DNA of 50,214 bases from a virus (Duplodnaviria; Caudoviricetes), in the IMG/VR virus record IMGVR_UViG_3300019458_000045, positions 1-50,214 of that record, one strand, 5' to 3'. Below are positions 4,089-36,884 of this stretch, piece after piece. Under the pieces are notes generated by a model. It was not told where the DNA came from, searched no databases, and saw only the letters and a program-made list of their open reading frames with translations. The first letter of the stretch is position 1; each line of letters starts with the position of its first letter. A program made the position numbers and the translations under genes.

Positions 4089-4478
4089 ATGACCAATCGC
4101 GTTCTCTTCATGTTGGGGCTCCTGGTCGGCGTGCTGGGGTTCCTGGCCGGGTGCGGCATCATGGACACGATGATGGGGTTCGACCCCGAGACCGGGGCAT
4201 CCACTGGGGGAATCGTGGGCGCGGCCGGTACGGTGGCCTCCCCGTGGCTGCCCTGGGCGGGTGCCGCCGCAGGCTGGCTCACTTCCTTCTACGCGGCCCT
4301 TCGCGGGCGCAAGTGGAAGCGTGCCGCCAGCGTCACCTTCGACTCGCTTGAGGAGTTCCTCAAGACCCCCGAGGGTCTGGCGCTGGAAGGCAAGATCAAG
4401 GAATACCTGGCGTCTAAGCACGACGCCGCTGGCGTCTACGACTTCGTGAAGGCGTACGTCGAGCGGTTCGACCACTAG
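4089..4478 (+). CDS. lipoprotein with an additional hydrophobic segment (possible lysis/spanin-type function)
   Basis: Signal peptide ends in lipobox LAGC. Second apolar stretch GIVGAAGTVASPWLPWAGAAAGWLTSFYAAL. Confidence 0.5.
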   Translation: MTNRVLFMLGLLVGVLGFLAGCGIMDTMMGFDPETGASTGGIVGAAGTVASPWLPWAGAAAGWLTSFYAALRGRKWKRAASVTFDSLEEFLKTPEGLALEGKIKEYLASKHDAAGVYDFVKAYVERFDH

Positions 4479-6567: not shown

Positions 6568-6918
6568 ATGGCGGTGAGCGAACTGGTCCAGGGCTTGTCC
6601 CAGGACTTCCAGCGGTGGGGGTTGGAGGCTGCTACCCGCGTGGCCTACGGGGTTGGCCAGTGGGGGATTCCTGAGGACAACGTTTGGATTGGCCAGACTG
6701 CCGATGGACGAATTGCCGGTTGACCTATCGCGTACGCTGCTGGCCGGATGCCAGGTCAGGATTTTGACGACATTCCCATGGATACAATCCGCTATTCGTA
6801 CATGCAGGTTGATGGTCCTATGGCAGGTCATGTCGTTTCCCTGCCTGAAGGAACTACGGCCAAGGACGTTCTGGCCGCCGCGAGGTTGGCTATCCGCAGG
6901 TTGAAGAGATCCTCCTAG
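6568..6918 (+). CDS. putative selenoprotein A1 (116 aa, in-frame TGA at 6721-6723, codon 52)
   Basis: Reads ...GRIAG*PIAYAAG...LPEGTTAKDVLAAARLAIRRLK. Homologous to 7772..8119 on both sides of the TGA; SECIS-like hairpin follows. Confidence 0.8.
6721..6759 (+). promoter_or_regulatory. putative bacterial SECIS element 1
   Basis: UGA, then 16 nt, then CUGGC-CGGAU-GCCAG (6740-6754). UGACCU can alternatively pair with AGGUCA (6753-6758). Confidence 0.7.
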
Positions 6919-7771: not shown

Positions 7772-8119
7772 ATGAGCAAGCGCGAGTTGGTGGAGGTCCT
7801 GGCGAGGTCGTTCAAGTCGTGGCGCTTGGGTGCCGCCAAGCGGGTGGTCAGTGGGGTCCTCAAGTGGGGGATTCCCCGCAACCTCGGTGAGTGGATCGGC
7901 TTGAACGTCAAGAGACGTATGTCCGGTTGACCCATCATGTACGCCGCTGGCTGGACGCCGGTTCAGGACTCCAATGACTTCCCTGACGACATTGACCGTT
8001 ACCGCTATAGCTGGGATGGGTGGGGGAACCGCGCTGGCCTGCCTGGAGGAACTACGGCCAAGGACGTGCTGACCGCCGCACGGCGGGCCGTTCGCCGGTT
8101 GAAGGAGAAGAGGAGCTGA
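7772..8119 (+). CDS. putative selenoprotein A2 (115 aa, in-frame TGA at 7928-7930, codon 53)
   Basis: GGGAGG RBS. Reads ...RRMSG*PIMYAAG...LPGGTTAKDVLTAARRAVRRLK; paralog of 6568..6918. Confidence 0.8.
7928..7966 (+). promoter_or_regulatory. putative bacterial SECIS element 2
   Basis: UGA, then 16 nt, then CUGGC-UGGAC-GCCGG (7947-7961; one U-G pair). Confidence 0.7.
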
Positions 8120-12723: not shown

Positions 12724-13999
12724 CTTCGACGTTCCCTTCCAGCGCAACCTACTGGCGGCGGCCTGGAACGACCGGGACTTCCTCGCCAAGGCCGAGGAGT
12801 GCCTGCGGCCCGACTACTTCACGGACGAGGTGCTGGCGGGAGTAGCCCGCGCCCTGCTCCACCTGTGGTCGGCCCACCGGACGCTGCCGGACCTGCCCGC
12901 CGTCCTTGAGCGGGTCCGCGAGGAGGTCGCCCCCGGCCGCAAGTACGGCGAGTATGAGAAGGAAGTCAAGCGCGTATGGAGCCAGCGTGGAACCAACACC
13001 GAATACTACCGCGAGCGGGCCGTTGAGTTCGCCAGACGACAGGCTGTCGCGGATGCTGTACTCGCTGCTGACGGCCTCATGGCTGACGGGAAACTTGACT
13101 CGATTGAGCCTCTCCTTCGCCGGGCTCTCGCCACCGGGGGTGGGCTCGCTGGCCAGTCGTACAATCACCTTGAGGAAGCTGATGCCCGGCTTGCGCTGTA
13201 CGTTCAGCGCGACGGCGCACGATCCCGAGACGAACGGCGAGTACCTTGCGGAATTGGTCCTATTGATGCCGCCACGCAGGGCGGCCTCGGAAAGGGGGAA
13301 CTCGGATGCGTCGTAGGGCTGGCCGGAAAGGGCAAGACTACGTGTCTTATCAACCACGGGGCGAACGTCCTGATGGGGGGTCGGAACGTCCTGCACGTCA
13401 CCCTGGAGAACTCCCTGGAGGTGACGGCGGCGCGGTACGACGCCCGGCTGTTCGGCCGGTCGATGGCCAGGATCAAGAAGTTCCCGGCCAAGTTCCAGAA
13501 GCACATGGCGAAGCTGCGGGAGGATTTGACTTCCCGGCTGCTGATACGCTACTACCCGACTGGGATGCTTACGGCTTCGACCTTGGAGGTGGAGATTGAG
13601 CGGGCTTCACCTAGGCCGGACGTGGTGTTCGTGGACTATGCGGCCCTCATGCGAACAGCGGGTGCTGCTGGAGGTCGTGATGGGCTGCGGTTCGAACTGG
13701 CTGATACGTTTCGGGATCTACGCCGGGTCAGCGGCATTACGTCTGCACCTATATGGACGGCACATCAGGCGAACCGCCCGGGGGTGGGCGCTGAAAAGCT
13801 CGGTATGGTACATCTGTCCGAGTGTTTCGAGATTGCTGGCATCGTTGATGTGGGCCTTTCGATAAACTGGGACGACGACAAGCCCGCCGAGGTGTCGATG
13901 TATGTCTGGAAGAACCGGCTGGGTAAGGGCGATTTCGAGGTTCCCTGTTCTGTCAACTGGGAGACCAGCATCATTTCCTCTTACAGCGACGAGGTGTAG
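12683..13999 (+). CDS. DnaB-like replicative helicase
   Basis: Walker A GLAGKGKT, 'LHVTLEN', 'VFVDYA', 'WTAHQANR', 'KNRLG'. Confidence 0.92.
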
Positions 14000-14500
14000 A
14001 TGAGCGATCAAGACACTGCTGGGAATTACCAGGAACTCCCCGTGCCTTCCGATTTGCCTCTCCCCCCAGGGGACCCCGTTGACAACCCAATGACTCCACT
14101 GGACCCTTATCTTTTCCGGGACCAATACACCCCAGTGGTAGGAGTCCCCGAGGAGTCCACCGTCGTCATCCGGCACAAGCCGGACGGCGGCTACAAGCTG
14201 GACCAGGACAAGCAGCGGTGGGACTTGCTGCCCATCCGCCCCATGCGGAAGGTCGTGGACGTGTACACCCGGGGCTCCAAGAAGTACGCGGATCGCAACT
14301 GGGAAAACGGCATGAAGTGGAGCCGGGTGTACGGGGCGCTGCTCCGGCACGTCACCGCCTTCTGGAACGGCGAGAGCATCGACGAGGAAGGTGGCCAGCA
14401 CCACTTGGCCAGCGTCGTATTCTCAGCCCTGGCCCTCATGCAGTACGAGGAGGACTTCCCCGACCTGGACGACAGGCCAAGGAAGCCGGGGGTGAAGTGA
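14000..14500 (+). CDS. dATP/dGTP diphosphohydrolase domain protein (DUF5664)
   Basis: 'GYKLDQDKQRWDLLP', 'GSKKYADRNWENG', 'ALLRH', 'GESIDEEGGQHHLA'. Confidence 0.85.
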   Translation: MSDQDTAGNYQELPVPSDLPLPPGDPVDNPMTPLDPYLFRDQYTPVVGVPEESTVVIRHKPDGGYKLDQDKQRWDLLPIRPMRKVVDVYTRGSKKYADRNWENGMKWSRVYGALLRHVTAFWNGESIDEEGGQHHLASVVFSALALMQYEEDFPDLDDRPRKPGVK

Positions 14501-14919: not shown

Positions 14920-15878
14920 GCCTGTCCCTGCTGTCGGCCCTCACGTCCAAGCTCGGGGAGTACGACTCCAACCCTGTCCGAGACGACGGGGAGTACGAGT
15001 TCGTATGTCCCAGGTGCCCCAAGCAGGACGGCAAGCGCAAGCTGGGGGTCAACGTCTCCCGCAAGGTGTTCAACTGCTTCCGGTGCGGGTGGCGCGGGCG
15101 GCTGGTCGATCTCTTGCGGGCCCTGGGTATCAACCCGCTTTCCCTCGGCCCCGACCTGGGCATACGCCCGGTGGCCGCCTCGGACACCTACGGCCCGAAG
15201 GTGCGGCCGGACCAGATTCCCGGCTATACCCCTCTGCCGGAGCCGGACCAGCCCATGAGCCGGATAGAGCAGGTGGCGTACGACTACTGCCGGGAGCGCG
15301 GCCTGGACGACGTGGGCGAGGTCACGTCCCTTCGCCTGGGAACGTCCACGGAGAAGGACCTTGCCGGGCGGCTGGTGATCCCGGTGTTCGAGGACGGCCG
15401 CATGGCGGGGTACTTCGCCCGGTCCCTGTTCGACTACCTTGAACCCAAGGACAAGGTTGGGCCGGAGTACCTGGGCTGGGCCCCCAAGGGAGAGTTGGCG
15501 TACGGCCTGGACCTGATGCGGCCCGGCCACGTCCTCGTCCTGGTCGAGGGGTTTTGGGATTGGGTGCGGGTGCGGAAGGTATCGCGGTCCCTGGATTCGT
15601 TGGCGCTGCTTGGGTCCAACCTCGGGCCCGTGGCGGCGGGCAAGATCCTGGCCCGGCGGCCCGGCCGCATCGTCGTCATGCTGGACGGCGACGAGGCTGG
15701 GGAGCGCGGCACCCGCAAGATCGTGTCTGAGCTGCTGGTCCACCGGAAGTTCGCCTCCGTCCACGTCGCCCGTCCCCCAGTGGGCAAGGACCCCGACGAG
15801 TTGACGGCGGGCACGATCCTCGCCCTGGTGAACGAGGCCATACCCGCCGTCAACTGGCTTATCAAGCACGGGCGGTAG
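14916..15878 (+). CDS. DNA primase (Zn finger + TOPRIM)
   Basis: CPRC...FNCFRCG, 'RLVIPV', 'LVEGFWD', 'LDGDEAG', 'KDPDE'. The TTG start is inferred from the overlap. Confidence 0.9.
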   Translation: MSLSLLSALTSKLGEYDSNPVRDDGEYEFVCPRCPKQDGKRKLGVNVSRKVFNCFRCGWRGRLVDLLRALGINPLSLGPDLGIRPVAASDTYGPKVRPDQIPGYTPLPEPDQPMSRIEQVAYDYCRERGLDDVGEVTSLRLGTSTEKDLAGRLVIPVFEDGRMAGYFARSLFDYLEPKDKVGPEYLGWAPKGELAYGLDLMRPGHVLVLVEGFWDWVRVRKVSRSLDSLALLGSNLGPVAAGKILARRPGRIVVMLDGDEAGERGTRKIVSELLVHRKFASVHVARPPVGKDPDELTAGTILALVNEAIPAVNWLIKHGR

Positions 15879-16164
15879 GTTCGCTGAACAGGTGGGCCGG
15901 GAACCTGAATCGGAAGGGCTTGGTGGGGAAATCCATGCCGACGTCCGTGATAGCCTAGGTTTGGATCTTGACCATACGTTTCGGCCAGGGATAGTTCAGG
16001 AGACCCTCTTCTCCATACACCATTGCGGACTTGACCTGAACACTGTGGCACTTGACTCCTGCGTCCAGCAGGGCTAGGGCCACAGGTCACTGCTCGGTGT
16101 TTCTCAACTGGGACCGTCCCCTCTTCAAGTGATCCTCGGTCACCGGGACGTAACGGTACTTCAT
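15862..16164 (-). CDS. putative selenoprotein B1 (TGA codon 26 at 16089-16087; also in-frame TAG codon 70 at 15957-15955)
   Basis: AAGGAGG RBS. Reads MKYRYVPVTEDHLKRGRSQLRNTEQ*PVALALLDAG...KIQT*AITDVGMDFPTKPFRFRF...; the TGA aligns with Cys in CPVALAI of 23084..23365. Confidence 0.7.
16052..16089 (-). promoter_or_regulatory. putative bacterial SECIS element 3
   Basis: UGA, then 14 nt, then CCUGC-UGGAC-GCAGG (16072-16058), a perfect 5-bp stem, followed by AGUCA which can pair with UGAC. Confidence 0.7.
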
Positions 16165-16178
16165 GGCTGCCTCCTTTC

Positions 16179-16471: not shown

Positions 16472-17047
<576 letters not shown>

Positions 17048-18159: not shown

Positions 18160-18861
18160 TTAAAGGGTGAATTCCTCCGCTTCCCCGCGTGTCAGGAAGA
18201 AATGAATCCCGCCCGCGCACTCGATCCACTTATCTGGTTCCCACTTGTGGGCCTTGACCATTTCCCCGGCCCGGTAGGCTGTTACCGCGTCCCGCAGGCT
18301 ATACCCAACATCCGCCCCGATAACGTCCAGGACGCGGACATGAGACGCTCGGCACTTTCGCCCCGTTGCGTTGGAGCGGGCCGCGTCGGCCGGGATTTCC
18401 AGTTTGACGATGACTTCTTTCTCGCCGCCCGGTTCCGCCTTACACTTTTTCCAACCGATGAAGGCCCCCTCCGGGGGCGTGATTTCAGTGGCTGGGAGGT
18501 CCGCCCCCTGGAGGTTCGCCCCCCGGAGGTTCGCCCCCCGGAGGTTCGCCCCCTGGAGGTCCGCCCCCTGGAGGTCCGCCCTCTGGAGGTACGCCCACTG
18601 GAGGTTCGCCCCCCGGAGGTCCGCCCTCTGGAGGTCCGCCCCCCGGAGGTCCGCCCCCTGGAGGTCCGCCCCCTGGAGGTCCGCCCCCTGGAGGTTCGCC
18701 CTCTGGAGGTCCGCCCCCCGGAGGTTCGCCCCATGGAGGTTCGCCCTCTGGAGGTACGCCCCCCGGAGGTTCGCCCCCCGGAGGTCCGCCCCGCCTGCTA
18801 CTGCGGTGGCCACGGATTCCCACTCCCCGATTGTCGAGCCGTCCAAGCGCTTGATCAGCAT
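18160..18861 (-). CDS. pentapeptide repeat protein with DUF5758-like C-terminus
   Basis: About 20 A(D/N)L(R/Q)(G/R) units, then 'FIGWKK', 'KLEIPADA.RSNATGRKCRAS', 'ECAGGIHFFLTR.EA'. Confidence 0.9.
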   Translation of the reverse strand: MLIKRLDGSTIGEWESVATAVAGGADLRGANLRGAYLQRANLHGANLRGADLQRANLQGADLQGADLQGADLRGADLQRADLRGANLQWAYLQRADLQGADLQGANLRGANLRGANLQGADLPATEITPPEGAFIGWKKCKAEPGGEKEVIVKLEIPADAARSNATGRKCRASHVRVLDVIGADVGYSLRDAVTAYRAGEMVKAHKWEPDKWIECAGGIHFFLTRGEAEEFTL

Positions 18862-23083: not shown

Positions 23084-23365
23084 ATGAAGAAGGTGCTGAA
23101 GGTTCGTGTGGGGAAGTACCACATCCAGCAGGGCATCAGGTGTTCCCTGACCAAGTGCCCTGTAGCCCTCGCCATTAACTCCCTGCTGCCCTAGGGTCAA
23201 AGCGGGTGTGTGGCACCGGACAGCGTGGATATTGGGAGTTCCAGTGACTCCTGGTACAAGACGTTTTACTTGCCCCCGAAGGTGGTGGCCTTCATTTACG
23301 CCTTCGACACCGGCAAGCCTGTCAAGCCCTTCACGTTCAACCTGGTGGTGGAGTTGTGGGCGTAG
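23084..23365 (+). CDS. Cys-containing paralog B2 of the minus-strand selenoprotein; in-frame TAG at 23192-23194 (readthrough or pseudogene)
   Basis: GGAGG RBS. Reads MKKVLKVRVGKYHIQQGIRCSLTKCPVALAINSLLP*GQSGCV...LPPKVVAFIYAFDTGKPVKPFTFNLVVELWA. Confidence 0.65.
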
Positions 23366-26697: not shown

Positions 26698-27387
26698 ATG
26701 GGAAAGCCTGGCCGTCCCCGAACGAGAGTTCCTCCCCCCGACCCCTGCAAACTGGACATCGACCCCGACTGGCTCGACTGGTTCAAGCTGGAATGTCCCA
26801 GGAAGCGCGAGTTCCTTCTCAGGTTCGAGGCGTGCGGGTCGGCCAAGACCGCCTGCCGGTTGACCAAGATCCGGCCCTCCGAATTGGACAAGTGGCTCAA
26901 CGACAAGGACGAGTCCGGCCAGTTGACCCGGGACGCCGAGACCATGCGCATGGCCATGGACATGGCCCTCGAGCACCGCGTCCAGGTGCTTGAGAACGAG
27001 GCCCGCCGCCGGGCCTTCATGGGCTCCGACCTGCTGCTCATTTTCCTGCTCAAAGCGGCCAGGCCCAACGTGTACCAGGACAATATGCGGCTGGTCCATG
27101 CGGGCACCGATCCCCTGACCGGCCAGCCCCGGAACCAGTTGAACATCCAGGTCAACAACATGGCTCCCGCGCCGCTGGCGATTCACGAGCCAGAGCAGCT
27201 CGAGCGGGTAATGGAATTGGCCAGACGATACAATCTTGTAGACAGGCTGTTCCCGAAGGTCAAAGATGGCGAAGTTGCCGCAGATCCAGTTGGCGCAGAA
27301 CCTGTTGACGGCTCTGACGCCGAAGTGGACGAGGTACATCCCGATAACACCGCACCCGAAGCAACATCTTTTGCTGTGTCTGGATAA
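26698..27387 (+). CDS. terS: terminase small subunit
   Basis: 'PGRPR', HTH-like segment, 'LENEARRRAF.GSDLLLIFLLKAARPNVY'; immediately upstream of TerL. Confidence 0.8.
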   Translation: MGKPGRPRTRVPPPDPCKLDIDPDWLDWFKLECPRKREFLLRFEACGSAKTACRLTKIRPSELDKWLNDKDESGQLTRDAETMRMAMDMALEHRVQVLENEARRRAFMGSDLLLIFLLKAARPNVYQDNMRLVHAGTDPLTGQPRNQLNIQVNNMAPAPLAIHEPEQLERVMELARRYNLVDRLFPKVKDGEVAADPVGAEPVDGSDAEVDEVHPDNTAPEATSFAVSG

Positions 27388-28714
27388 CGTTGAAGAGATT
27401 TTCTTCGGCGGCGCGGCCGGACCAGGAAAGAGTGCTGCCCTTCTCGCGTGTTGCCTTCAGTACGTGGACCAGCCCGATTACGCCGCGCTCATCGTGCGGC
27501 GCAACTATCCCGACCTGGTGCAGCCCGGCGGCCTGGTTGACATGAGCCACGATTGGCTGGACGGCACCGCCGCCAAGTGGAACGAGCAGTTCAAGAAGTG
27601 GCATTTCCCCGGCGGGGCCTGCCTGCAATTCGGCCACATGGACAACAAGACCGAGATCAAGCGGTACAAGGGTGGCCAGTACCAGACTATCTGCATCGAC
27701 GAAATGACCGACTTCAACAAGACCGAGGCTATGTTCCTACACTCCAGGCTTCGTCGCCGCACCGGGTCCACGATCCCGCTCCGGTTCCGGGCCGCCTCGA
27801 ACCCCGGGGGCACTGGGCACGAGTGGGTCAAGGCCCGGTACGTGGACTACGACGGCAGCGACCGCCTGTTCATCCCGGCCACACTGGACGACAACCCCTA
27901 CATCGACCGGGCCGCCTACGTGCGGTCCCTGGACCGGCTGGACCCCATCACCCGGGAACGACTACTCAAGGGGGACTGGACCGTCACGGACGGTGGCCGG
28001 ATCTTCGACCGTTCCTGGTTCGCCAACTTCTACGACGCCCGCCCGGAACTCGTGTCCGCTCGGGTGCGGGCGTGGGACCTTGCCGCCACGGTTCACGACG
28101 CCTCCAAGGAGACGGCTGGGGTGCTCATGTCCCGGACGGTCAAGGGACTGTGGGCGGTCGAGCACGTCGTCCACGGCAAGTGGCTGCCTGGCGACCGGGA
28201 TCGTGTCATCCGCCAGACAGCCGAGACGGACGGTGAGTACACCTCGGTCGTGATCGAGGAGGAGCCGGGTTCCGGTGGAAAGGCTCAGAACGAGAACCTG
28301 ATCCGTATGCTGGCTGGCTTCCGCGTGGAGTCCATCAAGGTCACGGGCGACAAGTTCGTGCGGGCCGGGGCCTTCGCCTCCCAGTGCCAGGCCGGTAACG
28401 TATTCCTGGTCCGGGGCCCGTGGAACGCGGCCTACATCGACCAGCTTCACGCGGCCGACCCTGAGAACGACGAGTTGCTGATTGACATGATGGACGCATC
28501 CAGCTTGGGATTCAACGCGCTGGTCCGCAAGCCGCTCAACCCGTACGCGGTGGAGACGCCGGAGCGCACCGCCAAGCGGTCCTTGGGCCTGGACCTGGAC
28601 TGGGAACGGGCCGAGGAAGAGGAGGCTGCCGAGGCCGCTAAAGCGCGCAAGGTCAACCTGTACGAGAGGATGTTCGCGGACACTGGATCTTCTTTCAGGG
28701 AGTGGTTCCTGTGA
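27266..28714 (+). CDS. terL: terminase large subunit
   Basis: 'PHPKQ', Walker A GGAAGPGKS, Walker B ICIDE, 'ASNPGG', 'DNPY', nuclease 'RAWDLAA' and 'DMMDA'. Confidence 0.95.
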   Translation: MAKLPQIQLAQNLLTALTPKWTRYIPITPHPKQHLLLCLDNVEEIFFGGAAGPGKSAALLACCLQYVDQPDYAALIVRRNYPDLVQPGGLVDMSHDWLDGTAAKWNEQFKKWHFPGGACLQFGHMDNKTEIKRYKGGQYQTICIDEMTDFNKTEAMFLHSRLRRRTGSTIPLRFRAASNPGGTGHEWVKARYVDYDGSDRLFIPATLDDNPYIDRAAYVRSLDRLDPITRERLLKGDWTVTDGGRIFDRSWFANFYDARPELVSARVRAWDLAATVHDASKETAGVLMSRTVKGLWAVEHVVHGKWLPGDRDRVIRQTAETDGEYTSVVIEEEPGSGGKAQNENLIRMLAGFRVESIKVTGDKFVRAGAFASQCQAGNVFLVRGPWNAAYIDQLHAADPENDELLIDMMDASSLGFNALVRKPLNPYAVETPERTAKRSLGLDLDWERAEEEEAAEAAKARKVNLYERMFADTGSSFREWFL

Positions 28715-35900: not shown

Positions 35901-36884
35901 ATGGCGCTCAATCCCATCCAGGCCAATCAGGTCCTCACCGCAGGACTACAGGCCAACTTCGCGCACACGTACGCGGCTTCGGCTCGTGCGAACCGCGAGA
36001 AGCTGGCCAAGGTCATGTCCATGGGCGAGGCTGCCGGGGCCAGGGTGACGCCGCTCGGCTATTTCCAGTCGGCGGTTTACCCGGAGCATTGGCCGTACGG
36101 CGATCCCATCCCCGAGGGGACGCACGACTCCGTGTCGTACAACGTCACGATCCGCCGCTGGGCCAAGCGGATCAAGTGGAACCGTGACGACGTTACGGAC
36201 GAGCAGACGCATACCCTCAAGCAGCGTGCCCTCCAGCTTGGAGAGCACTTCGGAACCCTGCACGAGCGGGTGTTCTTCCAGCTTCTCCAGGCGACGGTGG
36301 ACGCGGCCCTTCTCCCCGGTCCCCTCCCCAACGCCCCGGACGGCGCGGCGTTCTTCGCCACCGCGGCGGGGGGCGTCAACCGCTTCGGCGTTGCCAGCGG
36401 CAACCTCCTGACTGGGAACGGCGTGGCTGACATCGCCTCGATCCAGCGCGACTACTACAGGGCGATCACTCAGTTCACGCGAATGACGGACACCCAGGGC
36501 CAGCCCCTCCACAACCCCGGGGACTCCGACCGTGGCGTGTGCGTCATCTTCAACACGGCGAACAAGGAGATCTTCGAGAGGGCGTTCCACGGCTCCCTGG
36601 TCCAGGGCATCGCGGCCGGGATCTCCAACATTGTCCTCGACACCCGCAAGGGCGTGGACCTGTGGGAGACCCAGCGCGTCACGACCGACGACTGGTTCAC
36701 GTTCATGACGGGCGATCCCCTCAAGGCCACGGCCCAGTTCGACAAGGAGGGCCTTGAGACGACCGAGGCCGACTGGTCGAACAGCGACGAGGCCCGGACG
36801 CTCGATCACGGGTACTTCCAGGCCAAGGCCCGATACGGGTACGTCATCAACCTTCCCTATCAGGCTCTCCAGGTCAACAACTAG
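35901..36884 (+). CDS. major capsid protein (Mu gpT-like)
   Basis: 327 aa with AAGGAG RBS; 'YNVTIRRW...RDDVTDEQ', 'VFFQLL', 'DGAAFFATA', 'ARYG'. Confidence 0.8.
   Translation: MALNPIQANQVLTAGLQANFAHTYAASARANREKLAKVMSMGEAAGARVTPLGYFQSAVYPEHWPYGDPIPEGTHDSVSYNVTIRRWAKRIKWNRDDVTDEQTHTLKQRALQLGEHFGTLHERVFFQLLQATVDAALLPGPLPNAPDGAAFFATAAGGVNRFGVASGNLLTGNGVADIASIQRDYYRAITQFTRMTDTQGQPLHNPGDSDRGVCVIFNTANKEIFERAFHGSLVQGIAAGISNIVLDTRKGVDLWETQRVTTDDWFTFMTGDPLKATAQFDKEGLETTEADWSNSDEARTLDHGYFQAKARYGYVINLPYQALQVNN

Follow-up and report, generated by a model that had tools for sequence, protein, structure and literature searches.

A candidate selenocysteine codon in a small gene of a tailed phage whose genome holds two further UGA genes

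Virus record IMGVR_UViG_3300019458_000045 (Duplodnaviria; Caudoviricetes) is a single contig of 50,214 bases, which was analysed at its full length and is called the window below. On its minus strand lies a small gene, here named B1, in which an in-frame UGA codon occupies the position where its homologs nearly always encode cysteine. From comparisons of sequence we consider it moderately probable that this UGA is, or recently was, a selenocysteine (Sec) codon, served by a selenocysteine insertion sequence (SECIS) of the bacterial type and by the SelB protein of the host. Two more genes of the window, A1 and A2, belong to another family, and they too have a UGA at a cysteine position with a hairpin of the same type behind it. 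The reading frame of B1 is interrupted a second time, by a UAG codon, and we infer that B1 is a selenoprotein gene caught soon after its inactivation.

Cells make use of selenocysteine insertion, as do a few eukaryotic viruses; fdhF of Escherichia coli is the prototype, and the E. coli SECIS has a loop of the GGUC type. In bacterial selenoprotein genes the SECIS lies inside the open reading frame (ORF), where it is read by SelB, according to the available portions of PMC1976440 and bioRxiv 10.64898/2026.03.03.709296. A literature search that included PMC9402790, as far as its text was accessible, found no bacteriophage selenoprotein in print.

The mechanism that we propose for B1 follows the bacterial one. 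The hairpin of its messenger RNA (five base pairs, a loop of five nucleotides, UGGAC, and closure by G-C) would serve as a SECIS of the bacterial type. In the infected cell its apical loop would be bound by the SelB-GTP-Sec-tRNA(Sec) complex of the host, which would read the UGA as selenocysteine, and a selenol would then be put one residue before a helix, where relatives carry a thiol. No tRNA gene was found in the 50,214-base window, and neither SelA nor a SelB wing domain was found in the phage, so that the phage would be dependent on a selenocysteine-competent host.

The UGA codon of B1 and the cysteine of its family

The frame of B1 translates as MKYRYVPVTEDHLKRGRSQLRNTEQ*PVALAL..., the asterisk being the TGA, in the context ...NTEQ*PVALALLDAG.... 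The gene is a divergent member of phrog_19191 (family B in what follows). Like its paralog B2 it matches this profile end to end, at E 3.6e-6 with its residues 6-86 aligned to positions 3-82 of 91; Pfam gave no convincing family match for either paralog. An initial annotation of the sequence had placed the TGA of B1 where B2 has TGC and had similarity resume at KPF.F, and in both respects it was right. The translations and a BLASTP alignment over the whole length (29% identity, E 0.005) put the TGA opposite the cysteine of B2, which reads ...SLTKCPVALAINS... around this residue (including SLTKCPVALAI), and in both paralogs KPFRF or KPFTF follows the column in frame. As worded, that annotation was correct on the frame and on the TGA, and it omitted the TAG codons that B1 and B2 carry in frame (Table 1). 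The AGGAGG ahead of B1 lies directly 3' of the TAG stop of the upstream gene, B1 being part of a leftward operon; no promoter or terminator signals of note were seen around it.

How the cysteine column is occupied elsewhere was read at 31 other family-B loci, 13 of them from viral contigs, 15 from metagenome contigs (at least three contigs occur in both sets) and three from a set of 14 Gordonia phage records, the other eleven of which lie outside this count. At 29 loci the codon is TGY and at two it encodes glycine, with no TGA and no in-frame stop of any kind. The loci represent 22 distinct proteins, 21 with Cys and one with Gly (the two Gly loci are one contig met twice), and all of them are remote from B1 and B2, at 46% identity or less. 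Thus, the comparison of TGA with TGY that the initial annotation had proposed yielded no second TGA homolog. One homolog (L013, 2812-3237) is without the cysteine: RGALALALRDAG replaces xCPVALAL..., and the protein has a C-terminal extension of about 55 residues. Since this homolog lacks it, the Cys is not strictly essential to the family-B fold. Close relatives of B1 were found neither in viral contigs nor, at near lengths, in a set of 5.8 billion proteins.

Beyond the TGA the gene still has the look of a coding sequence. Its frame-0 codon score is positive in all three of its segments (+0.48 post-TGA and +0.46 post-TAG, against an off-frame mean of -0.68), and there are no frameshifts. The neutral decay behind the TGA that the annotation had named as an argument against selenocysteine is not apparent, the codon score staying coding-like.

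A hairpin type common to three UGA codons

A scan of both strands (about 100 kb) for stems of five base pairs, G-U pairs allowed, around a YGGAY loop returned nine hairpins. Three of the nine sit 19-21 nucleotides behind an in-frame TGA-CC, namely those of B1, A1 (6721) and A2 (7928). Pairing holds in every one of the 15 stem cells of their alignment; the loop is conserved, as are the closing G-C pairs, and two inner stem pairs differ between B1 and A1/A2 in a compensatory, both-sided manner. An outer helix UGAC...GUCA is possible at each of the three sites. The hairpins of B1 and of family A lie in different codon phases. A shuffle control on the alignment (104/500) is uninformative with three sequences. 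The 60 nucleotides from the B1 UGA onwards have a minimum free energy of -24.7 kcal/mol with a z of -2.08, a stability that 6 of 200 shuffles also reach.

According to the initial annotation the hairpin belongs to the TGA copy only, and co-occurrence with TGA was to be looked for among homologs; on both counts the observations agree with it. B2 has no hairpin of the form stem5-YGGAY-stem5, and the YGGAY hairpin is absent from all 22 family-B homologs that served as the Cys type. Nor could any of the 22 homolog peptides encode it under any choice of synonymous codons. The B1 peptide ALLDAG can encode it, and 8.3% of 100,000 draws by genome codon usage do so. In the gene itself the 3' arm of the hairpin is built with two rare codons: GCA, which makes up 5% of Ala codons, and GGA, which makes up 13% of Gly codons.

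Strong support for translation past a UGA comes from family A. A1 and A2 are paralogs of the replication module, 54% identical, and their TGA codons fall on the same column, G-U-P-I-x-Y-A-A-G. Behind the TGA the two genes have a dN/dS of 0.36/1.16 = 0.31 with 61% amino acid identity, and ahead of it 0.41 with 45%. The ratio of 0.31 indicates purifying selection on the post-UGA sequence, which must thus have remained under translation after A1 and A2 duplicated (dS ~1.1). Among 1.84 billion representatives a search with the family-A profile gave nine matches, two of which are the truncated N-terminal halves of the window's own genes. Six matches were fetched; they contained four homologs, full-length or partial, and all four, which are singletons in protein clusters, have Cys at the TGA column. 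The peptide of one of these four could encode the hairpin, and does so in 19% of codon draws. No close family-A relatives came from viral contigs or from a word search, and the family is absent from four phage records in which family B or a related TerL occurs.

Homology of families A and B was considered and rejected, as hhalign gave a probability of about 1% with just a 12-column motif aligned. What they have in common is the short motif (U/C)-P-[IV]-x-x-A. Their AlphaFold2 folds also differ: B2, modelled with Gln at its TAG, has an alpha/beta fold (predicted local distance difference test, pLDDT, 94.6), and A2 is mostly helical (pLDDT 88.1). In both models the Cys stands one residue ahead of a helix that starts with Pro. 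Foldseek found no match to B2 or A2 in the PDB at E 0.001 or better, and a wide VIA-align search with B2 reached a best Z of 4.0, no solved fold being matched. That the shared motif may form a redox- or metal-active site, as the annotation suggested, is an idea which these models inform weakly. Its broader claim, that Sec was acquired in two small phage families, fared unevenly: the families are non-homologous, the motif is common to both and translation past the UGA is strongly supported in family A, but in family B the claim depends on B1 as the lone TGA member.

Table 1. Positions of B1, its paralog, the family-A genes and their elements in the window
Feature	Position	Strand	Remarks
B1, divergent phrog_19191 member	16164..15862	-	100 codons + stop TGA (15864-15862), TAA immediately after
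Candidate Sec codon TGA, codon 26	16087..16089	-	at nearly invariant Cys column of family B
SECIS-like hairpin CCUGC[UGGAC]GCAGG	16058..16072	-	starts 14 nucleotides after TGA; loop 19 nucleotides after UGA
Larger predicted structure enclosing the hairpin	16032..16089	-	UGACCUGUGGC pairs with downstream GCCACAG...AGGUCA
Premature in-frame TAG of B1, codon 70	15955..15957	-	inside CCTAGG (15954-15959) and a B1-specific 4-codon insertion
Shine-Dalgarno-like AGGAGG	16171..16176	-	6 nucleotides before B1 ATG; read from sequence
B2, paralog of B1, phrog_19191	23084..23365	+	Cys codon TGC 23156-23158; profile match E 1.6e-11
In-frame TAG of B2, codon 37	23192-23194	+	inside CCCTAGGG
A1, family A	6568..6918	+	in-frame TGA 6721-6723; hairpin CUGGC[CGGAU]GCCAG 6740-6754
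A2, paralog of A1	7772..8119	+	in-frame TGA 7928-7930; hairpin CUGGC[UGGAC]GCCGG 7947-7961

Several traits of B1 are those of bacterial genes read by SelB through a SECIS. Its UGA lies opposite Cys in homologs and is followed right on its 3' side by a stem-loop whose apical loop contains guanosines, the UGA is at the foot of a larger helix, and the spacing is similar, the loop coming 19-21 nucleotides after the UGA in B1, A1 and A2. In contrast to the SECIS of E. coli, the loop is YGGAY and no Rfam SECIS model matches it. Unlike bacterial selenoprotein genes, moreover, B1 is phage-borne, in a phage without sel genes or tRNA, and contains an amber codon.

The field has its own criterion for such cases. 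In the survey of Olavius symbionts by Zhang and Gladyshev (PMC1976440, in its available portion), a "new selenoprotein" needs TGA in at least two different sequences of a family, and a "candidate" combines a single TGA sequence with two or more Cys homologs and a structure resembling a SECIS, sequencing error or mutation being possible. Family A has two such sequences, A1 and A2. B1, with one TGA sequence, Cys homologs and a SECIS-like structure, matches the candidate class as set out there, and under this criterion it would be a single-sequence "selenoprotein candidate". It differs from the candidates of that survey, again as far as the available portion goes, in that two more UGA genes, of another family and with the same hairpin type, are found in the same 50-kb genome.

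Gene decay, the amber codons and other explanations

A number of observations weigh against a selenocysteine codon in B1. It is the sole TGA member of family B that was found, and since no close relative of it was found, there is no conservation evidence for its own UGA or hairpin. With a hidden Markov model (HMM) that we built from the 22 family-B homologs it scores 23.8 bits (B2 scores 78.3), which is weak and also compatible with a decaying gene; its segments after the TGA score 8.3 and 6.8 bits, a weak homology in a frame that is broken by the TAG. This second in-frame stop, at codon 70, removes the most conserved C-terminal strand, the counterpart of which (83-90) lies in the core of the B2 model. 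As for the hairpin, its own free energy is ordinary, generic hairpins of at least five base pairs are common after the Cys codon of family-B homologs, and 45% of the B1 codon draws yield a 5-bp hairpin of some kind that has a G near the start of its loop. No Rfam SECIS family was matched at the gathering threshold, nor in local searches at two of the sites with E allowed up to 10. Bacterial SECIS elements vary widely, and models cover them poorly (PMC12013277, in the part available).

Most of this would fit a decaying pseudogene, in which TGC or TGT first became TGA, a TAG arose as a second nonsense mutation, and the hairpin results incidentally from the ALLDAG peptide and GC-rich codons. Two in-frame stops in a lone TGA member with a low family score are what such a gene may look like, codon draws for its peptide give a YGGAY hairpin in 8.3% of cases and some hairpin in 45%, and the nonsense codon of B2 suggests that the family is dispensable here. 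Nevertheless, we regard decay as an unlikely origin of the TGA, since it needs three coincidences. The nonsense mutation would have struck exactly the one conserved Cys codon; it would have done so in the one peptide, of 23 family members, that can encode the hairpin; and rare GCA and GGA codons would happen to yield the hairpin in a form that shares its loop, closing pairs and spacing with those at the translated UGAs of A1 and A2. It is because random nonsense needs all of these together that we favour a present or recent Sec codon. The lack of frameshifts and a frame 0 that remains coding-like through all three segments also argue against decay.

Both premature TAGs lie within CCTAGG, a hexamer found in the genome only at 13610, 15954 and 23190, and they stand at non-homologous positions; the 4-codon insertion that bears the TAG of B1 is present in none of 15 other aligned sequences. 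CTAG is strongly depleted in this genome, with 41 occurrences where composition predicts about 169, and CCWGG, at 299 vs about 186, is enriched. On the two strands together 6 of the 571 TAG trinucleotides are in CCTAGG, and both premature ones would be among them by chance with p ~1e-4. In both genes the sequence after the TAG is in frame and coding-like, and no structure beyond chance follows it (z +0.87 and +0.15). Deamination of 5-methylcytosine in CCAGG is an amber hotspot (PMC11603525, in its available part, citing Coulondre et al. 1978). Like the Dcm-CCAGG ambers of E. coli lacI, the two TAGs could have arisen when deamination of the inner cytosine converted CAG (Gln) to TAG, leaving C-TAG-G after a C. 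In contrast to lacI, CCWGG methylation is assumed for this phage, in which no encoded C5 methyltransferase was found, so that a host enzyme would be needed.

Both TAGs would then be recent hotspot mutations in dispensable genes, and B1 and B2 may be freshly inactivated. Given ambers at codon 70 of B1 and codon 37 of B2, production of the full-length protein has probably ceased, except where UAG is suppressed. Truncated products are unlikely to fold, judging from the B2 model, in which the post-TAG strands belong to the core, and this applies to the predicted 69-residue product of B1 as well.

One may also consider readthrough of the UGA without selenocysteine, by a near-cognate Trp or Cys tRNA at a weak UGA-C, with the hairpin as a general stimulator. 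UGA is followed by C at all three sites and no Rfam SECIS model matches, both of which would agree with it. We nevertheless think this explanation very improbable. The UGA replaces an invariant or nearly invariant Cys in two unrelated families, which is the signature of Sec/Cys exchange, and a Trp at that position would be disruptive. TGA-C, moreover, terminates four ordinary genes of the genome, and these true stops are without such a YGGAY hairpin.

A further alternative is that both kinds of stop are programmed: the UGA would be read as Sec, and the CC-UAG-G ambers of B1 and B2 would be decoded too, whether through a suppressor tRNA of the host, as pyrrolysine or by regulated readthrough, so that full-length protein would come from both genes. 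The sequence beyond the TAG is homologous to the family as well as in frame and coding-like (in B2 the HMM gives 31.8 bits upstream of the TAG and 44.5 bits downstream), the rare CCTAGG context is common to the two TAGs, and B2 with Gln at this position is modelled with high confidence. Yet TAG is the commonest true stop, ending 10 of 24 confident genes (TGA and TAA end 7 each); genes that end in TAG show no short tandem back-up stops behind it, and the window has no tRNA. The want of structure after the TAGs and their non-homologous positions, one of them in a B1-specific insertion, speak against it too, and the shared context is also explained by the known mutational hotspot. We therefore give little credence to programmed ambers. 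The same low credence goes to the wider picture of one phage using two host-code expansions, in which the three UGAs are read via a shared, host-matched SECIS (GC-YGGAY-GC) and the B1 and B2 ambers are decoded as well; if it were true, B1 and B2 would be live genes with an output dependent on selenium supply and amber suppression.

Two other notions were rejected. General reassignment of a stop codon (codes 4, 15, 25 or TAA-only) does not agree with the fact that all three stop codons end confident genes, and scans of GC content at third codon positions showed no coding-flanked in-frame stops besides gene junctions and the B1, B2, A1 and A2 sites. A translational hop over the TAG of B1, between the AUC...AUC that flank 12 nucleotides, would take off from a codon that is not beside the stop, and B2 has nothing comparable.

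Finally, a sequencing or assembly error as the source of the TGA, the TAG or both is scarcely credible: the metagenome assembly is about 16x deep and the phage sequence is in a single public run, a cave metagenome that is possibly the source sample, but contigs from an independent assembly of this run, at about 16x depth, match the window at all five stop sites and differ from it by 1 base in 16.9 kb, even if the sample may be the same and contigs hide minority variants.

The phage genome, its host and the meaning of the UGA genes

The window is the whole virus record, with a CheckV completeness estimate of 100% and a genome GC content of 63%. It has no DNA match to cultured phages. Its TerL is best matched, among cultured viruses, by that of the archaeal Methanothermobacter viruses psiM100 and psiM2 (43.6% identity, E 2e-98), and among viral contigs relatives are found at 47% and 40% only; tblastn with the major capsid protein matched none of 50,697 phage records. 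The likeness to psiM100 and psiM2 and the unmatched capsid protein concern positions 27266-28714 and 35901-36884. A host search in genome contigs gave no match with the family-B alignment and none with TerL.

Other genes encode a PD-(D/E)XK nuclease, a DNA polymerase, a DnaB-like helicase, a primase-like protein, a trypsin-like protease and a pentapeptide-repeat protein. The last of these, in the leftward early operon (18160-18861, minus strand), is a pentapeptide-repeat domain (PF00805, E 1.5e-40) fused to DUF5758 (E 3.1e-25). An ORF of 166 amino acids on the plus strand (14000-14500) matches PF18909, a dATP/dGTP diphosphohydrolase N-terminal domain, at E 2.2e-28; we take this domain to belong to the MazZ enzymes of aminoadenine (Z-genome) phages, and no adenylosuccinate-synthetase-like (PurZ-type) gene is present in the 50,214-base record. 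At 4089-4478 (plus strand), directly after an RNase_H-superfamily gene, a 129-residue ORF without a Pfam match has a lipoprotein-type signal (…LAGC). A low-complexity repeat at 16514-16608 reads as a stretch rich in Ala in gene 16472-17047 and as a run of Gly in the overlapping frame, and the independently assembled contigs break there. The single base at which they differ from the window, 10083, falls within the DNA polymerase gene; the window has C at this position and the contig A.

Two non-homologous families with UGA at a conserved Cys and the same apical hairpin form the pattern that a single host SelB would impose. If B1 is or was a selenoprotein gene, the phage is predicted to have a Sec-competent host whose own SECIS loops resemble GC-YGGAY-GC, and the shared hairpin type could serve as a fingerprint by which to find that host. 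B1 would then show Sec/Cys exchange between paralogs within one phage genome, and its amber codon would show how quickly such genes are gained and lost. If this is confirmed, gene callers that stop at UGA in phages systematically truncate a class of small proteins.

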